Assembly: GCA_965225945.1 (NCBI GenBank) | Contig: CBDDBZ010000039.1 | Coordinates: 384,001 to 448,000 of the forward strand | Length of the DNA stretch: 64,000 bases | Reading direction: 5' to 3' | From: Alphaproteobacteria bacterium | Lineage (GTDB): Bacteria > Pseudomonadota > Alphaproteobacteria > GCA-2731375 | Part shown: one piece after another, positions 8,524 to 23,925 of the stretch | Layout: each line of letters starts with the position of its first letter | Numbering within the stretch: position 1 is the first letter of the stretch | Made by a program: the position numbers and the translations under genes | Notes under the pieces: generated by a model | The model's database searches: none | What the model was told of the DNA's origin: nothing | Seen by the model: the letters and a program-made list of their open reading frames with translations, nothing else

Positions 8524-10198
8524 ATGACCGCGCCCGACCGCTTCGACAATACCCGGCGGATCTGCAGCCCTCGGGGCTCTACCCTCGACTGCCCGGAGTT
8601 GGCTCACCGAGGCGCCGCTCCGCATGCTGATGAACAATCTCGACGCCGAGGTCGCCGAGCGGCCGGAGGAGCTGGTGGTCTATGGCGGCATCGGCCGTGC
8701 GGCGCGCGACTGGGCCTGCTACGACGCAATCGTCGCCTGCCTCGCGGAACTGGCGGCGGACGAGACTCTGCTGGTGCAGTCGGGCAAGCCCGTCGGCGTC
8801 TTCCGCACCCACGAGGACGCGCCCCGCGTGCTGATCGCCAACTCGAACCTGGTCGGCCAATGGGCGACCTGGGATCACTTCCATGAATTAGACCGGGCCG
8901 GTCTGATGATGTACGGGCAGATGACGGCGGGATCGTGGATCTACATCGGCAGCCAGGGGATCATCCAGGGCACCTACGAGACCTTCGTCGAGGCCGGCCG
9001 CCAGCACTATGGCGGCGATCTTGCCGGCCGCTGGATCCTGACCGGCGGGCTCGGCGGCATGGGCGGCGCGTAGCCCTTGGCCGCGACCATGGCGGGGGCC
9101 TCGATACTCTGTGTCGAGGCCAGGGCGGAGCCTATCGAACGGCGGATCGCGAAGGGCTATCTCGATCGCTGGACCGCCGACCTGGAGCAAGCGCTGGGCT
9201 GGATCGAGGCCGCGTGCGCGGCGCGCGAGGCGGTCTCCGTCGGCCTTCTCGGCAACGCCGCCGAGGTCTTTCCCGAGCTGGTGGCGCGTGGCGTCCAGCC
9301 CGATATCGTCACCGACCAGACAGCGGCGCACGACCCGCTGAACGGCTACCTGCCGGCCGGCTGGACGGTGGCCGAGTGGGAGGTACTGCGGAACAGCGAG
9401 CCGGCCCGGGTGATCGCCGCCGCCAAGGACTCGATGGCGCTGCAGGTGCGCGCCATGCTGGCCTTCCACCGGGCCGGCGTGCCGACACTCGATTATGGCA
9501 ACAACATCCGCCAGTTCGCGAGGGAGACGGGGGTCGCCGACGCCTTCGACTTTCCCGGCTTCGTGCCGGCCTATATCCGGCCGATGTTCTGTCGCGGCCG
9601 GGGCCCGTTCCGCTGGGTGGCGCTCTCGGGCGAGGCAGCGGACATCCACAAGACCGACGAGGCGGTGAAGGCGCTGGTCGACGACCCCCACCTCCACCAT
9701 TGGCTCGACATGGCGCGGCAACGAATTCCCTTCCAGGGACTGCCGTCCAGGATCTGCTGGCTCGGCTTGGGCGAGCGGGCGCGGGTCGGCCTCGCCTTCA
9801 ATCGGCTGGTGGCCTCGGGCGAGTTGGCGGCGCCGATCGTGATCGGCCGCGACCATCTCGATTCGGGCTCCGTCGCCAGCCCCAACCGCGAGACCGAGGC
9901 GATGCGCGACGGCTCCGACGCGGTGGCTGACTGGCCGCTGCTGAACGCGCTGCTGAACTGCGCCAGCGGCGCCACCTGGGTCTCGATCCACCACGGCGGC
10001 GGGGTCGGCATCGGCTATTCGCAACACGCCGGCATGGTGGTGGTGTGCGACGGCACCGAGGCGGCAGCCCGCCGGCTGGAGCGGGTGCTGAGCAACGATC
10101 CGGCCAGCGGCGTCATGCGCCACGCCGACGCCGGCTACGAAGACGCCATCGCCTGTGCCCGCGAACACGAGCTGAACCTGCCGATGCTCGATGGCTAG
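8524..10198 (+). pseudogene. hutU: Urocanate hydratase with a +1 frameshift (~8592) and an in-frame TAG (9071-9073)
   Basis: [11 protein letters not shown].../[51 protein letters not shown]. Confidence 0.9.
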
Positions 10199-16291: not shown

Positions 16292-16939
16292 ATGACTCAA
16301 TTACGCGTCGGATTCGTCGGCGACAGCATCACCAACGGCACCGGTGACGAGACCCTGCTCGGCTGGACCCTACGACTGGGCCAGGCCGAGCGGGCGCGCG
16401 GCCACGACGTCACCGTCTATAACCTGGGGGTTCGCGCCGATACCTCGGAAATGGTCCAGGCGCGCTGGGAGGCCGAGTGCGCGGCCCGGCTGCAACCGGC
16501 TTACGCCTGCGCCACCGTCTTCGCCCTCGGCATCAACGACAGCGCCCACGAAAAAAGCGCGGACAACGACGGCTTGCGGGTTCCGCTGGAACGCTCGGTC
16601 GAGATCATCGCGGGCATGGCGAGGGCGGCGCGGCGGTTCGGCCCCGTGCTCTGGATCGGGCCGACGCCGATCGAGGAATCCTTCATGCCGCTTTGGCCCT
16701 TCGCCGGGTTGAGCTTCGCCTTCGAGAACCCGGTCATCGCCGAATACGGCCGCGCCTACGCCGCGGGCGCGGGCGAGATCGACGTGCCCTACCTCGATCT
16801 CTTCGCCGCGCTGGCGGATGATTCGGCCTGGTACGCGATGCTGGGCAAGACCGACGGGCTGCACCCGAACGCCGAGGGCTACGAGCAGTTGACCGCGCTG
16901 ATCGCCGCCTGGCCGGCGTGGCGCGCGCTGCTGGATTGA
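16292..16939 (+). CDS. SGNH/GDSL hydrolase
   Basis: GDSI, NLGV, GIND and DGLHPN blocks. Confidence 0.9.
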   Translation: MTQLRVGFVGDSITNGTGDETLLGWTLRLGQAERARGHDVTVYNLGVRADTSEMVQARWEAECAARLQPAYACATVFALGINDSAHEKSADNDGLRVPLERSVEIIAGMARAARRFGPVLWIGPTPIEESFMPLWPFAGLSFAFENPVIAEYGRAYAAGAGEIDVPYLDLFAALADDSAWYAMLGKTDGLHPNAEGYEQLTALIAAWPAWRALLD

Positions 16940-16967
16940 GCCGGACGATAGCGCTCGGGCCGCGACC

Positions 16968-17426
16968 ATGACCGAGATCTACGTCGACGCGGACGCCTGC
17001 CCGGTCAAGCACGAGGTGCTGCGGGTGGCCGAGCGCCACGGCTTGCACGTCCATATGGTTACCAACCAGGGCTACAACGCGCGCGGTCAGCCGCTGATTC
17101 ATGGCGTCATGGTGCCCCAGACGCCGGATGCCGCCGACGACTGGATCGCCGGCCACATCGGCCCCGCCGACGTGGCGGTGACGGCGGACATTCCGCTCGC
17201 CGACCGTTGCCTGAAGACCGGCGCCCGGGTGCTCGGCCCAACCGGGCGGCGCTTTACGGCGGACAACATCGGCGGCGCGCTCGCCACCCGCGACCTCTTG
17301 GCCCGGCTTCGCGAAACGGGCGAGATCCGGGGCCGAAACCCCGGCTTTTCGCGCCACGACCGCTCGCGCTTCCTGGAGGCCCTGGAGGCGACGGTGCGCG
17401 CCGCGACGGGAAAGAGCGGTGGCTGA
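16968..17426 (+). CDS. YaiI/YqxD (UPF0178) family protein
   Basis: IYVDADACPVK, DAADDWI, VTADIPLA. Confidence 0.92.
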   Translation: MTEIYVDADACPVKHEVLRVAERHGLHVHMVTNQGYNARGQPLIHGVMVPQTPDAADDWIAGHIGPADVAVTADIPLADRCLKTGARVLGPTGRRFTADNIGGALATRDLLARLRETGEIRGRNPGFSRHDRSRFLEALEATVRAATGKSGG

Positions 17427-17875
17427 GGGCGGGCGCGGCTTGAAGAGGAATTTCTGCCCGTTGGCCTCGACCTCGGGCGCCGGCGAAGCAGGCATTGAAG
17501 AAGGCGAGCGTCTCGTCCGTAATGCGTCCCCGCGCCCGCCGGTCGACGCCGAGGGCCTGAAACTCCGCCGCCATCCAGCCGACGCCCGCGCCGACGACCA
17601 GGCGATTGCCGCTGAGTTCCTGGATCGTCGCGATCTGCTTGGCCGTCGCCAGCGCTGCGCGGTAGGGCAGAATCAAGACGGCGAAGCCCAGGGTGACGCG
17701 CGTCGTGATCCCGGCGAGCCAGGCGAGCGTCGCCAGGGTGTCCATATAGCGCCCGCCGCTGCCCTCGGCGTCGTCTGGCGGGATGGCGAGGTGATTGGTA
17801 GTCCAGATCGATTCGACCCCGGCCGCCTCGGCGGCGAGCGCGCAGGCGGCCATCGTCCCGGCCGTCGACTCGCTC
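17427..17875 (-). pseudogene. LLM-class (F420-type) oxidoreductase remnant
   Basis: AAEAAGVESIWTTNHLAIP...LSGNRLVVGAGVGWMAAEF; frameshift near 17480; N-terminus and C-terminal half missing. Confidence 0.75.
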
Positions 17876-18160
17876 CGGCGCGATCGCGCGATCACCCGGC
17901 TTGCGCCCGGTTTGGGAGGCTCGCGCGCGGCGAACCCTCACGAAAATCGGCGATTCACGCGCCAAGACGACGTTTTCGAATGCATACATCTCAGGGTCTG
18001 AATATGCGTGAGACAAGCAAAGCATTGATGGTCAACGCCGTTTGGGCTTCACCCCGGCATGACGGGATTTCGTTTTGCAAAATCGGCGATATTCGGAAGT
18101 ATACAATTATTCCTATATATATCGAAATAGTTTTTAGGCTGCACGCGGCTCGTTGTTTTC

Positions 18161-18338
18161 GTCGAATATCCCGGCTGGCCGAGTATCGCGAACCTTCGCA
18201 TCTCGGGCGACGTGCCCACCCCGTGTCCGAGCCCTCGCCCTCGAACCGCCGCCGCCCGTATCCCGGGCTCGGACCTCTCCTCGAATACGGGATGTCCCGA
18301 CGAGCGGCCCGGGCGATATCTCCTACCATGGGTTCGAC
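18161..18338. repeat. Long imperfect inverted repeat (hairpin H1)
   Basis: Nested arms GTCGAA/TTCGAC, ATATC/GATAT, GGCCG/CGGCC and perfect GTCCGAGCCC/GGGCTCGGAC. Confidence 0.55.
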
Positions 18339-18445
18339 GGTGGGGTGTGGGAAGACGCTATGGTCGGGAATCGGGCGTGGAATTCAATTTTCAAGACGCG
18401 ACCGCCCAGCCTGCGACCCCCCAGCCCGCGCTATTTGCGCCTGCC

Positions 18446-18569
18446 CTTCTCATCTTCAATGGTGAGCGCGGCGCCGAGCACTGTAAAGGCGGAGCCTTCG
18501 GCTCCCCGCTTCGCGGCTTACGGCCTTGACAGCGCCCGTCCCCACACTCCGACGCTCCTCCATGAGAAG
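18446..18569 (-). promoter_or_regulatory. Branched hairpin element A (ssDNA promoter/origin-like)
   Basis: Minus strand CTGTCAAGGC..CCGC-GAA-GCGG-GGAGCC-GAA-GGCTCC-GCCTTTACAG; TTTACA-N17-CACCAT; outer arms CTTCTCAT/ATGAGAAG. Confidence 0.6.
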
Positions 18570-18667
18570 AATGGTGGAGAGTAGACCATGGTATCCATTT
18601 TCTCGGCGACGTGGCGATCCCGCCGCCAATTTCGATCATGTCGAGCAACTTCCATCGGATCCCCTCC

Positions 18668-18824
18668 CCTTCCGCCGCACCGAACCATCGATGGCACGGC
18701 GGAGCGGGAAAGGCGGGCGACGCCGCTAGTCAAGGCCGCGGCCGCGCAGCGGTGGCCCGAAGGGCCAGCCTTTACTCGCGGCGGCGCTCGCCGGATCATC
18801 GAGCACGCCATCGACGGCGGAAGG
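18668..18824 (+). promoter_or_regulatory. Branched hairpin element B (inverted homolog of A)
   Basis: AGTCAAGGC..CCGC-GCA-GCGG-TGGCCC-GAA-GGGCCA-GCCTTTACT; TTTACT-N17-GATCAT; outer arms CCTTCCGCCG/CGGCGGAAGG. Confidence 0.6.
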
Positions 18825-18860
18825 ACGAGCACCTTTGCGGGATCATCGGGCCGATAGTAG

Positions 18861-18945
18861 AGCGGAAAGGGGGTCTTGTACTTTAATCGCCGACGGTGCC
18901 TGGGCTTGTAAAAGTACAACGACACCTTTTTCGATTTCTCCCGCT
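18861..18945. repeat. Inverted repeat (hairpin H4)
   Basis: AAAGGGGGTC-TTGTACTTT (core 18876-18884) ... AAAGTACAA-CGACACCTTT (core 18911-18919). Confidence 0.6.
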
Positions 18946-19072
18946 GGCGGGAACCTCGATCGCCGAACCGATGGCCCGCCATGGTCCCTTCGTCATGAAC
19001 ACCCGTGACGAGCCGACCGCCGCCCTCGACGATTACCGCTCGGGACCCATGGGGACGATCGCGCGGAGCTGA
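18944..19072 (+). pseudogene. Pirin family C-terminal remnant
   Basis: LAGTSIAEPMARHGPFVMNTRDEPTAALDDYRSGPMGTIARS*; GPFVMNT is the pirin C-terminal signature. Confidence 0.8.
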
Positions 19073-19183
19073 CGCACCGTCCCCGCTCTTCCCTCGATTT
19101 TCCGTGCCTGGAGGGAAAAACTCATGCAAGAAGCAAGACCTGACCCTCGAACCTTTGACCCCTCGCAGTTAGGCAAAATCAAA

Positions 19184-20213
19184 CCTGATTACGCACTTTA
19201 CTCAGCCGGATTGATGTGGTATAAATCGTGAACATTTGGTGGTTTTACAGGAGATTCACGATGCCACGCAACAAGGTTCAGTTCCAGAAGGGGCTCAGCG
19301 AGCCGCGTTTTCGTGAGTTGTACGGTACCGAGGAGCAGTGTCGCGAGGCCCTGTTCCGCTGGCGCTGGCCGGAGTGGTTCGCCTGCCCCCGATGTGGCGC
19401 CACGCGCCATTGCGAGATCGCCGGGCGAAAACTTTACCAATGCGCCGCCTGCCGTCATCAAGTTTCGCTGACCGCCGGCACGCTCTTCCACGCGACCAAG
19501 CTGGCGCTGACCCTGTGGTTCTCGGCGATCTATCACATGACCCAATCGAAGAAAGGGATCTCCTCCCTCGAACTCGGCCGGCGGCTCGGCGTCACCCAGA
19601 CCACGGCCTGGAAGATCAAGCAGAAACTGATGCAGTCCATGCTCGAGCGCGATGCCAAATTGCCGCTCACCGGGCGGGTGGAGATGGACGATGCCTACCT
19701 CGGCGGCCGGCGTTCCGGGGCCAAGCGCGGCCGGGGCGCGCCGGGCAAGACGCCGTTCGTCGCCGCCGTCCAGACCACGGCGGAGGGCCAGCCCGTGCGC
19801 ATCAAGCTCCGCCGCGTCAAGGGCTTCCGCAAGAGCGAGATCGCCAAGATGGCCAAGCGCGACCTGAGCCCGCTGGCGACGGTTGTCAGCGATGGGCTCG
19901 GCTGCTTCACCGCGGTCACCGCGTAAGGCTGTGCGCACCATCCGATACCCACCGGCTCCGGACCCGGGGCCGTCGCCGTGCCCGCCTTCAAATGGGTCAA
20001 CACCACCCTCGGCAACCTCAAAAACACCCTGCGCGGTACCTACCATGCGATCCGACCCAAGCATGTGCCGCGCTATCTGGCGGCGTTCCAGTACCGATAC
20101 AACCGCCGCTACCGGCTCGCCGACATGATCGAAGCCCTCGGCCGCGATGCCCTGCGCACGCCGCCCATGCCATATCGGCTCCTGAAGTTGGCTGAGGTTA
20201 GTGCGTAATCAGG
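19184..20213 (+). mobile_element. IS1595-family insertion sequence, copy 1
   Basis: TIRs CCTGATTACGCACT/AGTGCGTAATCAGG; 8-bp target duplication AAATCAAA on both sides. Confidence 0.95.
19261..20208 (+). pseudogene. IS1595 transposase with an in-frame TAA at 19924-19926
   Basis: Zn ribbon CPRC/CAAC, VEMDDAYLGG, SDG, NTTLGNLK, YRYNRR. Confidence 0.92.
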
Positions 20214-20256
20214 AAATCAAATGTAAGCGAGACGGGAATCTACACTGCCGGCTCCC

Positions 20257-20286
20257 TTGAAAGCTTATACACTGACGGTGTATGAT
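20257..20286 (+). promoter_or_regulatory. Putative promoter with embedded palindromic operator
   Basis: TTGAAA-N18-TATGAT overlapping ATACAC-N5-GTGTAT (20267-20283). Confidence 0.55.
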
Positions 20287-20375
20287 TTTCGTCAGCGGCT
20301 CGGAGGGAGATTCCGGGCCCCCGCACGACCGCCGCTACTACCCCGATGCGCGCCCGCCTGTTTGTAGGAGCACAA

Positions 20376-20762
20376 ATGAAGCCCCCCACCCCCTTCGCCT
20401 TGCTACTCCAACATTGCGGACTCTCTCATCGGGAGACCGCCGACTTTCTCATGACAAGCGTCGACGCCGTGAAGTCCTGGTCCTCCGGCCGCAACCGGCC
20501 GCCTGCTTTCGCGACGGGCAAACTGGCCGATCTCGCGCTAGGCATCGACGAAGAGGCCCGGGGCTGGTTCCACATGATCGAGGATGGCATCGACCCCGAC
20601 AACGTCACGCCGGACGTGATCGAGTTGGAGATTGCCCCTGACGACAATGAGGCTCGCAAGCACGGCAAGCCCTGTGCTGCGGTCGAGCGCGCGGTCCTGG
20701 CGCGCGTCGTCGCCTGGGGTATGTGGAAGGGACTGAATTTCCGAATTGTCCCGCGATTGTAG
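20376..20762 (+). CDS. Phage-like XRE/Cro-type HTH protein
   Basis: AGGAG RBS; CGLSHRETADFLMTSVDAVKSWSSGRNRPP matches an HTH pattern; C-terminal domain not recognised. Confidence 0.7.
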   Translation: MKPPTPFALLLQHCGLSHRETADFLMTSVDAVKSWSSGRNRPPAFATGKLADLALGIDEEARGWFHMIEDGIDPDNVTPDVIELEIAPDDNEARKHGKPCAAVERAVLARVVAWGMWKGLNFRIVPRL

Positions 20763-20913
20763 TCGCGGCGCTAGGGCCCCCGCGTGAGCCGGAGCAAGCC
20801 GGTGTCCGGCACCAGCGAGAATATTCTGGGTCACCCATTGGGCGTCTGTTTGCAAGAGCATGCATCTTCCCTTTCCTCCAGCGACGTGCCGGCAGGTAGT
20901 TTGGGTTTCCTAG

Positions 20914-22539
20914 CAGCCTGTCGGACTTGAGCCGAGGGGTGTGATCTGATTCGATGGCATCGATTGATTCGCCCGCGATTGATGGAGGCCGTGATGAGCA
21001 ACTTCCGAGCGGTGGACCGCGAGACGGGGTTTCTGCTGCCGCCGTCGGTGGATGAATGGCTTCCCGAGCGGCATCTGGCGCGCTTCGTGGTCGAGGTGAT
21101 CGAGCAGTTGGACCTCTCGGCGTTCGTGAAGGCCTATCGCGGCTCGGGCTCGGCGTCCTATCACCCGAGCGTGCTGCTGGGGCTTCTGGTCTACGGCTAC
21201 GCCACGGGAGTGTTTTTTAGCCGCAAGCTGGAGCGCGCGAGCTATGATTCGGTGGCCTTCCGCTTCATCGCCGCCAACGACCATCCCGACCACGACACCA
21301 TCGCCAGCTTCCGGCGGCGCTTTCTCGTTTCGATCGAAGGGCTGTTCGTCGAGGTGCTGCTGCTGGCTCGGGAAACCGGGCTGCTGAAGCTGGGCACGGT
21401 GGCGCTGGACGGCACCAAGGTGCATGCCAACGCGAGCCGCCACAGTGCCTTGTCGTGGAAACACGCCTGCGAGATCGAAGCCCGGTTGAAGGCCGAGGTG
21501 GTGGAACTGATGAGGCTGGCGGAGGCGGCCGATGCGGCGGATGTGCCGGACGGGATGTCGGTACCGGAAGAACTGGCCCGGCGCGAGGATCGTCTGGCCC
21601 GCATCGCCGAGGCCAAGGCGGCGATCGAGGCGCGGGCGCGCGAACGCCATGAGCGGGAGCGGGCCGAGTACGAGGCGAAGCTCTAGGCGCGCGCGGAGAA
21701 GGCCGAGAAGACGGGCCGCAAGCCGGGCGGCCGTCCGCCCAAGCCGCCGGTGGCCGGGCCCGGGCCGAAGGACCAAGTCAATCTGACGGACGCGGACTCG
21801 CGCATCATGCCGGTGGCCGGCGGTGGCTTCGAACAGTCTTACAACGCCCAGGCCACGGTGGCGGTCGACAGCCTGCTGGTGGTCACCAACGATGTGGTCC
21901 AGGCCCCCAACGACAAGCAACACATCGAGCCGGCGCTGGAAGCGCTCGAGCGGCTCTCCGAGGCGCTGGGCGCGCCCGAGACCCTGCTGGCGGACAGCGG
22001 CTACTTCAGCGAGGCCAACGTGAAGGCCTGCGCCGAGGCCGGGATCGCGCCGCTGATCGCGCCCGCTCGGGAGCACCATCATCTCTCCTGGAAGGACCGC
22101 TTCGCCGGAGCACCGCCGCCCCCGGAGAACCCGACGCCGCTGGAAGCGATGCGCCATCGACTGGCCTCGCCCGAGGGCCGGCAACTCTACGCCCTGCGCA
22201 AGCAAACGCCGGAACCGGTGTTCGGCATCATCAAATCGGTGATGGGCTTCCGCCAGTTCTCGCTACGCGGCCTGGACAAGGTCAGGGGCGAATGGAACTT
22301 GGTGACCCTGGCTTGGAACATCAAAAGAATGTTCACCCTGCAATACGCGTGAGCAAGCGGCCGTGAGCAAAGCGGCAACTCCGTGTCCTCGCGAAAGGGC
22401 CTAAAGTGTATGCTCGCCTCGCGATACACGCGAGCAAGCGGCCGGACGCCATGTCCTCACGAAAGATGCCCGAACCCATGACCTCTCCACATCCCGATCC
22501 GTCCACACCCCTTCTCGCGGACCTCAGTCCGACAGGCTG
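20914..22539 (+). mobile_element. IS1182-family insertion sequence
   Basis: TIRs CAGCCTGTCGGACT/AGTCCGACAGGCTG flanked by duplicated CTAG. Confidence 0.92.
20994..22352 (+). pseudogene. IS1182 transposase with an in-frame TAG at 21684-21686
   Basis: LLPPSVDEWLP, PDHDTIASFR, DGTKVHANAS, NLTDADSR, LADSGY, RKQTPEPVFGIIK. Confidence 0.9.
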
Positions 22540-22718
22540 CTAGCTCCCTCGATGCGGCGTGGCATGGTGGGTTTCTTCAAGTTTGGTGTCGGCTGATGAA
22601 GCGCGCACCAGTCACCCATCAGGATCAAGACCGTTCCCCCGCTTGGCGCGCCGCCGCTCGAGGGAGGGCCCCTGGCGCCCCAGAAATCCTCTTGTGCCAT
22701 GCCGTCTCCAATGGATCT

Positions 22719-22746
22719 CACGCACCAGGGGTCCACGCACCAGGGG
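22719..22746 (+). repeat. 13-bp direct repeat x2
   Basis: CACGCACCAGGGG at 22719 and 22734. Confidence 0.7.
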
Positions 22747-22896
22747 GCAGGTCTTGCTTCTTGCAATGGTGCCCCAAAACACCTGATCGGGGTCGTGCTC
22801 GTCACGCAGCCGGTGCCCTGTCGGACGACTCGCGCGCGGCCCTCGTGACAACCCAATGGACCCAACCGTCGCCGGCCGGGCCTCGTCAAAAAAAAT

Positions 22897-23925
22897 CCTG
22901 ATTACGCACTTTACTCAGCCGGATTGATGTGGTACAAATCGTGAACAAATGGCGTTTTTTCAGGGGGTTCACAATGCCACGCAACAAGGTTCAGTTCCAG
23001 AAGGGGCTCAGCGAGCCGCGTTTTCGTGAGTTGTACGGTACCGAGGAGCAGTGTCGCGAGGCCCTGTTCCGCTGGCGCTGGCCGGAGGGCTTCGCCTGCC
23101 CCGATGTGGCGCCACGCGCCATTGCGAGATCGCCGGGCGAAAACTCTACCAATGCGCCGCCTGCCGTCATCAAGTTTCGCTGACCGCCGGCACGCTCTTC
23201 GACGCGACCAAGCTGGCGCTGACCCTGTGGTTCTCGGCGATCTATCACATGACCCAATCGAAGAAAGGGATCTCCTCCCTCGAACTCGGCCGGCGGCTCG
23301 GCGTCACCCAGACCACGGCCTGGAAGATCAAGCAGAAACTGATGCAGTCCATGCTCGAGCGCGATGCCAAATTGCCGCTCACCGGGCGGGTGGAGATGGA
23401 CGATGCCTACCTCGGCGGCCGCCGTTCCGGGGCCAAGCGCGGCCGGGGCGCGCCGGGCAAGACGCCGTTCGTCGCCGCCGTCCAGACCACGGCGGAGGGC
23501 CAGCCCGTGCGCATCAAGCTGCGCCGCGTCAAGGGCTTCCGCAAGAGCGAGATCGCCAAGATGGCCAAGCGCGACCTGAGCCCTGGGGCGACCGTTTTCA
23601 GCGACGGGCTCAACTGCTTCACCGCCGTCACCACGCGGGGCTGTGCGCATCATCCGATATCCACCGGCTCCGGACCCGGGGCCGTCGCCGTGCCCGCCTT
23701 CAAATGGGTCAACACCACCCTCGGCAACCTCAAAAACACCCTGCGCGGTACCTACCATGCGATCCGACCCAAGCATGTGCCGCGCTAACTGGCGGCGTTC
23801 CAGTACCGATACAACCGCCGCTACCGGCTCGCCGACATGATCGAAGCCCTCGGCCGCGATGCCCTGCGCACGCCGCCCATGCCATATCGGCTCCTGAAAT
23901 TGGCTGAGGTTAGTGCGTAATCAGG
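22897..23925 (+). mobile_element. IS1595-family insertion sequence, copy 2 (transposase pseudogene 22974-23920)
   Basis: Same TIRs as copy 1; A-rich target AAAAAAT on both sides; 1-bp deletion in the C-run near 23100 and TAA at 23786-23788. Confidence 0.95.

Follow-up and report, generated by a model that had tools for sequence, protein, structure and literature searches.

The 64-kb window analysed here, the whole stretch from position 384,001 to 448,000 of contig CBDDBZ010000039.1 of an alphaproteobacterial genome assembly (GCA_965225945.1), harbours a non-coding repeat of ~400 bp, an inverted dimer of two hairpin units designated A and B. The hairpin modules at the heart of these units are real, structured and non-random, and their core belongs to a family spread over many phyla. 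This family appears to be undescribed in Rfam 15, and in the literature as far as the latter is searchable. The unit is tentatively read as a cassette that folds in single-stranded DNA (ssDNA) and serves as an initiation site there, of the kind represented by single-strand origins (sso), single-strand initiation sites (ssi) and Frpo promoters, and that is present in the window as a relic; a probability of roughly 0.4 is given to this reading. The element comprises the following features.

18437 to 18839, no strand assigned: one occurrence of the gene-less repeat of ~400 bp, made up of two hairpin units in inverted orientation, delimited by BLAST against the own genome.
18443 to 18585, minus strand: unit A, a long imperfect hairpin with basal stem, internal loop, stem of 19 positions and three-way junction, taken from the ssDNA fold.
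18483 to 18530, minus strand: module A, GTCAAGG / CCGC-GAA-GCGG / GGAGCC-GAA-GGCTCC / CCTTTAC, located by pattern match and covariance model R1.
18459 to 18487, minus strand: -35-like TTTACA (18487-18482), 17-nt spacer and -10-like CACCAT (18464-18459) in the 3' arm of unit A, read from the sequence.
18586 to 18661, no strand assigned: spacer between the units, of variable length and poorly conserved among copies.
18662 to 18826, plus strand: unit B, a long imperfect hairpin with CCTTCCGCCG (18668-18677) and CGGCGGAAGG (18815-18824) forming the basal stem, taken from repeat search and ssDNA fold.
18729 to 18775, plus strand: module B, GTCAAGG / CCGC-GCA-GCGG / TGGCCC-GAA-GGGCCA / CCTTTAC, located by pattern match and covariance model R1.
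18771 to 18799, plus strand: -35-like TTTACT (18771-18776), 17-nt spacer and -10-like GATCAT (18794-18799) in the 3' arm of unit B, read from the sequence.

A strict pattern written from modules A and B (GTCAAGG-N5-8-CCGC-NNN-GCGG-N15-17-CCTTTAC) has two matches in the window and none in 100 dinucleotide-preserving shuffles (mean 0.00, largest 0). The two matches, 18483-18530 on the minus strand and 18729-18775 on the plus strand, are the two inverted hairpin copies described in the initial annotation of this DNA, and its remarks on their architecture were confirmed as well. The 6-bp stem differs between the copies while pairing is complete in both (GGAGCC/GGCTCC versus TGGCCC/GGGCCA), the GTCAAGG/CCTTTAC helix has the same C·T mismatch in each, and the outer arms, which show no sequence relation, pair over 19 positions in A and 17 in B with G·T allowed. 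A repeat search recovered the modules as an inverted repeat of 35 nt with 80 % complementarity. Covariance model R1 scored module A at 79.7 bits (C39:402471-402542, corresponding to window 18471-18542) and module B at 81.8 bits (C39:402717-402787, window 18717-18787). From bottom to top, each unit consists of a basal stem, an internal loop, a stem of 17-20 positions, the GTCAAGG/CCTTTAC helix and two mini-hairpins on a three-way junction, with module-strand loops GAA and GAA in A and GCA and GAA in B. The open reading frame (ORF) at 18588-18857 within the element is not kept in other copies and has no Pfam match; Rfam 15 yielded no family at E up to 1 for window 17000-20500. The metatranscriptome contigs X16, X18, X19 and X20 compared with 17900-19400 cover 17900-18183, 18881-19142 and the insertion sequence (IS) from 19183; none of them falls on 18437-18839, which is uninformative either way. 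Just to the right of the element, window 18866-18929 holds a separate 19-nt inverted repeat (AAAGGGGGTCTTGTACTTT / AAAGTACAACGACACCTTT) that overlaps a stretch contained in one metatranscriptome contig. Two public runs labelled as sponge metagenomes, X9 and X11, contain 0.68 and 0.59 of the sampled words from window 17900-19400.

Both units fold better as ssDNA than their shuffled sequences. Unit A (18441-18587, minus strand) reached -35.4 kcal/mol against -26.1 ± 3.0 kcal/mol for shuffles (z -3.08; complement z -1.4), and unit B (18660-18828, plus strand) -54.4 against -43.9 ± 3.1 kcal/mol (z -3.39, none of 200 shuffles as low; complement z -2.3). Folds of the whole element gave z-values of -4.6 and -6.3 against dinucleotide shuffles. 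Earlier folds of pieces of 90-100 nt had reached only z -0.2 to -1.7 because their boundaries were wrong. The proposal that the pairing is under selection was borne out once 27 modules and their 12-nt flanks had been aligned: 90 % of the cells were paired and 18 of 29 pairs had changed on both sides, a number equalled in 0 of 500 shuffles; slid controls were 24-49 % paired. The strict pattern itself fixes stems P1 and P2 in this alignment, which leaves as evidence no more than the outer stem, P3 and the 20/54 column pair, each of them varying with compensation.

The outer-stem wobbles on the strand that runs from GTCAAGG to CCTTTAC favour G·T over A·C by 13:3 among the copies in the own genome (about 10:2 independent events). 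In the Bradyrhizobium stems the ratio is 26:5, but 22 of these G·T pairs are one inherited site. Together with the better folding of the module strand this bias points to a single-stranded form of that strand, in line with the earlier proposal. Each loop on the same strand is a GNA triloop with a C-G closing pair. Since the complementary strand shows UUCG-type loops, the loop type cannot tell DNA from RNA.

Searches in 185,579 species genomes returned 28 loci with the strict pattern. Two of these were rejected as chance matches, lying inside long ORFs and having no second hairpin; 23 are from Bradyrhizobium, Afipia or uncultured alphaproteobacteria, and the other three are on Acetobacteraceae, Terracidiphilus and Myxococcaceae contigs. 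A looser pattern (GCTGTCAAGG-N25-45-CCTTKACAGC) gave at least 113 loci and at least 102 distinct hairpins in Alphaproteobacteria, Actinobacteria, Acidobacteria, Firmicutes, Verrucomicrobia, Bacteroidota, Aquificota and others. Almost all of these hairpins possess two or three mini-hairpins between conserved arms as well as complementary flanks, and most were scored by R1. Ten loci in the collection are on viral contigs, about five of them apparently true members. For 13 related loci Rfam 15 produced no family match, only sub-threshold hairpin look-alikes, and blastn against 72,556 plasmids found no match for the window element and none for the Bradyrhizobium unit. In 40 relatives, blastn of the window element gave two 35-nt matches only. 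Searching the literature for the module sequence strings retrieved primers only.

The company kept by several of these relatives is that of conjugative DNA, as had been predicted: traA-alpA loci on integrative and conjugative elements (ICEs), a cluster of nikA, type IV coupling protein and TrwC genes, and positions adjoining ardC, ssb, parA and rep. In every one of the 23 Bradyrhizobium-type ICE loci a distance of 55-90 nt separates the end of alpA from the module, which without exception reads on the other strand, and the end of a traA gene of the MobA/MobL-helicase type lies within the 1.5-kb flank in 19 of the 23. All 23 have the module in the same orientation, but they represent one lineage. 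Three 20-kb ICE views show the order traD/traC, intergenic origin of transfer (oriT), traA, alpA and module. The module is followed by a tyrosine recombinase gene in one locus and, 440 nt on in another, by what appears by eye to be a tRNA 3'-end fragment. On the minus strand of the traA-traC spacer of locus L042 a 6-bp inverted repeat precedes ATAAGCGCGCCCTCCC. In oriTs of the RSF1010 type the nick is on the 3' side of the inverted repeat, and transfer of the cut strand begins with its 5' end. We infer that the minus strand of L042 is at once the transferred strand, the traA template and the module strand. In the Bradyrhizobium-type ICEs the unit directly follows the relaxase operon, on the presumed transferred strand. 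Some 3.4 kb lie between the module of the ICE relatives and the predicted 3' end of that strand, a position outside the leading region. The accessible part of PMC4700958 confirms an RSF1010-like oriT between traA and traC, and that only.

In Terracidiphilus the module is located 75 nt upstream of a DUF6650 gene, which is followed by nikA-like, coupling-protein and TrwC genes. In locus L135 it lies upstream of ardC at a distance of 86 nt, and ardC is templated by the module strand. Neighbours within ~1.3 kb in the wider set include IS110 transposases (5 loci), SSB, ParA, ArdC, relaxase and restriction-modification genes, as well as a pSAM2-type RepSA and a rolling-circle Rep with a serine recombinase. 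Mycobacteria have a local version of the unit that is conserved in 69 plasmids, of which 42 were typed as mobilizable; there it occupies unannotated spacers by parA-type and small unnamed genes. In L044 and L045 the proteins encoded upstream of the module are unrelated to each other; the L044 protein is an ISKra4 transposase.

In Acidobacteria the non-coding end of an element of the IS110 family stands in place of one basal arm of the unit, marking the hairpin as a target of that element. Five acidobacterial loci (L086, L126, L129, L134 and L179) have the long non-coding IS110 end abutting the hairpin with one basal arm missing, and L134 has a duplicated half in addition. The presence of IS110 at the hairpin in Acidobacteria looks like RNA-guided targeting.

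Under the favoured reading the unit would be active while its DNA is single-stranded. Once folded, it would offer a duplex TTGACA-like -35 box and a duplex spacer, usually ending 17-23 nt on in an A/T-rich unpaired patch, with a second duplex beyond; the resulting shape would have the geometry of a pre-melted or open promoter. RNA would be started on the 5' arm by the host's RNA polymerase or by a primase, and it would serve either as primer for the complementary strand or as an early transcript. The unit would in this way act as a single-strand origin or initiation site for elements with an ssDNA stage. In the dimer, the inverted arrangement gives either strand one properly oriented unit. RNA from a unit would run to that unit's own 5' side, towards and through the partner, and the two starts of the dimer would therefore converge. 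The divergent pair of the initial annotation is not supported in this respect, as the predicted starts on folded ssDNA would point towards each other and not outwards.

The geometry of the hairpins is consistent with such a device. The -35-like box is invariant and lies inside the duplex, and the stem ends at the position expected for a -10 box. Among 98 distinct hairpins of the wider family the ungapped stem past ...ACAGC ends at 15-21 positions in 37 (perhaps 15 independent lineages), with mode 17, where ~5.4 would be expected with flank partners shuffled. In 43 orientable hairpins 56-86 % pairing gives way at the stem end to 30-40 %, with an increase in A/T to 53-60 %, and a second duplex follows; as a rule the stem stops 17-23 nt past the TTGACA-like box. 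The constancy of TTGACA across phyla would be explained most simply by its being read by a sigma-70-type polymerase in all bacteria. Going further, one may picture the core as a portable, host-independent ssDNA start cassette that recruits sigma-70-type RNA polymerase and was acquired by ICEs, plasmids and miniature inverted-repeat transposable elements (MITEs) for second-strand priming or early expression, the dimer being its strand-symmetric version; this extension is regarded as rather doubtful.

The promoter boxes of the window have fared less well. Pairs of -35/-10-like hexamers at 17 nt are present in both units, as had been noted, and CACCAT is retained in all six A-type copies of the own genome and GATCAT in the B-type copies listed. 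They are weak, however, TTTACA/CACCAT and TTTACT/GATCAT each agreeing with the sigma-70 consensus at 8 of 12 positions, and a simple promoter and terminator scan of 18300-19000 listed 0 and 0 sites. A spacing of "exactly 17 nt" proved not to be a general feature, and neither did the -10 box.

Several findings weigh against an initiation cassette. In units from the same genus the distance from the TTGACA box to CACCAT is 26-27 nt, and CACCAT simply belongs to the basal stem there. In 200 flanks of the wider family, hexamers of the TAnnnT type (A at the second and T at the sixth position) are not enriched at 17 nt (13/200) and reach at most 22/200, at 16 nt; no -10 consensus emerged when the hairpins were aligned at fixed spacing or by stem end. 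The peak in stem length represents not 37 but perhaps 15 independent lineages. Among related copies, for example L112 versus L119, the asymmetric apex faces either way with respect to the stem loops. The assignment of the transferred strand follows from the polarity rules of RSF1010-type oriTs and is not tool-derived. By a rough count, about half of the wider-family loci lie between housekeeping genes, and the genes beside T-variant hairpins, inspected by eye, share no common orientation. Furthermore, in two genomes of Hyphomicrobiales, G054 and G055, the unit is the centre of an element of ~290 bp with at least 31 and at least 41 long copies, respectively. This element has 30-bp terminal inverted repeats (TIRs) and a TA duplication inside CTAG, a combination that is the signature of an IS630-type MITE, and such copy numbers count against the cassette because an origin function does not predict them. 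The absence of transfer genes near the element in the window argues against a leading-region placement as for Frpo. Of the earlier proposal of an ssDNA device, support from relatives on conjugative DNA has accordingly remained, but the promoter specifics, namely the -10 box, the 17-nt spacing and the unique divergent pair, were not borne out.

As to the apex, inversions relative to two different internal-loop sequences were observed in alphaproteobacterial loci (L112 versus L119, and L160/L169). A flip/flop state of this kind would be expected from recombination between hairpin arms.

The pair in the window is not a unique divergent device, as had been suggested, but a dispersed repeat, and elsewhere the unit occurs singly. 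The own genome holds five full copies of the 18437-18839 repeat, one truncated copy and four variants lacking module A, the full and truncated copies being spread over four contigs. The four other full copies, found by BLAST at C33:279787, C22:18860, C35:209382 and C39:319196, share 75-78 % identity with the window element, and copy ends map to 18437/18440/18446 and 18828/18839. The copy at C32:215285 is broken off after 137 bp by another insertion. In the module-less variant (4 copies) the first 31 nt are joined straight to ATGAGAAG, that is, 18475 to about 18562. The module covariance model found exactly the 11 modules of these copies in the 6.27-Mb assembly and no others. The ends of the element are imperfectly inverted, and comparison of the own-genome copies revealed no definable TIR or target-site duplication. 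The module-less variants of unit A (L007-L010; C30:144278-144523 and three other places) are flanked by 65-bp direct repeats of 85 % identity and lie ~270 nt after a fragment of an IS110-family transposase. A second, unrelated palindromic repeat of the TGGCGATCCAG ... CTGGATCGCCA type flanks three of the five dimer copies and is also found alone; it was located at C39:68132-68267, C38:218246-218368, C24:29444-29592 and C36:208288-208375.

The wider surroundings of the element in the window are chromosomal, with rpoD, dnaG and cobST downstream, and the element itself lies amid broken genes and IS fragments. Window 16900-23800 is an IS graveyard, directly followed by intact rpoD and dnaG, and contains the following remains.

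17254 to 17895: truncated luciferase-like monooxygenase.
19228 to 20208 and 23051 to 23788: IS1595-family fragments.
20964 to 22352: IS5-type element.

A urocanase gene is split over the adjacent ORFs 8624-9073 and 9077-10198, which suggests a broken hutU or a sequencing error. The IS load of the genome is extreme: a 2.1-kb element has more than 40 near-identical copies (for example C30:141500-143593), an IS66-type element of 2.43 kb at least 15 (for example C35:210123-212553) and an element of 1.17 kb at least 25 (for example C35:213096-214261). Profile searches of the own genome, which is 96.6 % complete, recovered neither a MobA/MobL relaxase nor a VirD4/TraG coupling protein (T4SS-DNA_transf); other relaxase families were not profile-searched but covered by tblastn only, in which two ICE protein queries gave weak helicase matches and nothing else in the own genome. 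Most likely, the dimer of the window is a relic or passenger in IS-rich junk DNA.

The main rival explanation, in our view somewhat less likely, is that the unit is a selfish palindrome resembling a MITE or a repetitive extragenic palindromic (REP) sequence. Its hairpin would be recognised by the enzyme that moves or copies it, and its presence in ICEs and plasmids would be passive, the result of one old insertion inherited by 23 loci and of a general build-up in mobile DNA. The several copies in the own genome, three of the five full ones nested within the other palindromic repeat, fit this explanation, as do the high copy numbers with TIRs and TA duplication in G054 and G055, the presence or absence of the module within one unit, the matches at contig ends in relatives and the adjoining IS110, IS3, IS21 and ISKra4 genes. 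However, MITEs keep their ends, while here the centre is kept across phyla and the TIRs belong to the local carrier; for the window element no TIR or target duplication can be defined at all. The fixed position in 23 of 23 ICE loci and the conservation of the unit in 69 plasmids also speak against it. Moreover, no enzyme tracks the hairpin: small GIY-YIG proteins are absent in G054 and G002, and Y1 transposases are absent in G055 and G042. A system of REPs or REPINs with a REP-associated tyrosine transposase (RAYT) was rejected as a candidate, Y1_Tnp being present in three of five carrier genomes and lacking in G042 and in G055 with its at least 41 copies.

An element that acts as RNA, be it a signal for processing or stability or a small RNA, as with REP, ERIC and Correia repeats, is considered improbable. 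The covariation and the G·T bias would suit RNA equally well, the complement loops read as UUCG-type tetraloops, and the multi-branch shape comes with a weak YrlA-like match. On the other hand, Rfam offered no family at E up to 1 for the window or the 13 related loci, and the favoured strand in the ICEs is antisense to traA-alpA. The two units of the window would further need divergent transcripts from a 75-nt spacer without a promoter-like site. Bacterial Y RNA (YrlA) in particular was rejected, its best match reaching 34.5 bits against a cut-off of 69 and its protein partner Ro60/TROVE being found in none of five carrier genomes. A regulatory palindrome acting in double-stranded form, with back-to-back outward promoters or as operator of a dimeric protein, is very improbable, as the TTGACA-like boxes do point outwards on both strands but no -10 enrichment accompanies them and a duplex function gives no reason for compensatory arm changes or conserved mini-hairpins.

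How ICEs and most non-enterobacterial plasmids convert the incoming strand to duplex and express their early genes is largely unknown, and to our knowledge the known ssDNA promoters and origins form narrow sequence families. If the unit is an ssDNA initiation cassette, one common to Alphaproteobacteria, Actinobacteria, Acidobacteria, Verrucomicrobia and Firmicutes would provide a searchable marker of transferred strands and a testable route for the establishment of elements in distant hosts. If it is a selfish repeat instead, it would be a rare palindromic repeat of which the centre, and not the ends, is kept across phyla, and its hairpin would also be a common landing pad for RNA-guided IS110 recombinases.

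The element can be compared with several known systems. With MITEs (IS630/Tc1 type; Correia) and REP/REPIN sequences it shares being short, non-coding, palindromic and multi-copy, and IS110 inserts alongside it as at REPs. It differs from them in its conserved centre, which is the same in unrelated carriers across phyla, and in that no RAYT tracks the hairpin. MITE or REP biology therefore explains the copy numbers and the targeting by IS110, but not the conservation of the centre. The oriV of RSF1010 contains ssiA and ssiB, neighbouring initiation hairpins on opposite strands that are plasmid-primase sites of about 40 nt by iterons and rep genes. The window element likewise has one hairpin per strand, close together; unlike ssiA and ssiB, its units measure 145-165 nt and no replicon accompanies them. 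The hairpins of the Ssn-related motif (NTS/dRS3, SRM) are cut by GIY-YIG Ssn nucleases, according to the accessible part of PMC11893778, and as characterised there they resemble the present family as GC-rich hairpin repeats with a GTCA-type tag that act as ssDNA and occur in multiple phyla. The module, however, has A where the motif pattern in that part of PMC11893778 requires Y after GTCW. The Ssn-related motif was rejected as an identity of the module on this mismatch of the published pattern, judged by eye, and on the GIY-YIG matches in G054 and G002, which are only of UvrC size (650-700 amino acids).

In the Frpo/ssi promoters of IncF and IncI plasmids an ssDNA stem-loop rebuilds the promoter boxes (Masai & Arai 1997, cited in PMC11541004 and PMC12672017). 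As far as the accessible parts of PMC11541004 and PMC12672017 go, these promoters, which are found by homology and occupy leading regions, carry recognisable -10 boxes and have been proposed as early promoters and sources of primers. The present family is similar in presenting a large ssDNA stem-loop with a duplex -35 box on conjugative DNA. It is dissimilar in its three-way-junction apex, in the position of the ICE copies, which is at the trailing and not the leading end of the strand predicted to be transferred, in its chromosomal dispersal and in having no convincing -10 box; also, blastn of the window element retrieved nothing from the 72,556 plasmids. For sso1 of ICEBs1, the accessible part of PMC4595007 describes a start 6 bp after the relaxase gene nicK, three stem-loops, activity in one orientation and a contribution to stable acquisition by transconjugants. 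The known sso types are from Firmicutes plasmids, whereas this family is multi-phylum with one conserved helix, and no homology between them was seen. Of the systems compared, sso1 of ICEBs1 is the closest functional parallel; both have several stem-loops, and the ICE module comes after traA-alpA as sso1 comes after nicK.

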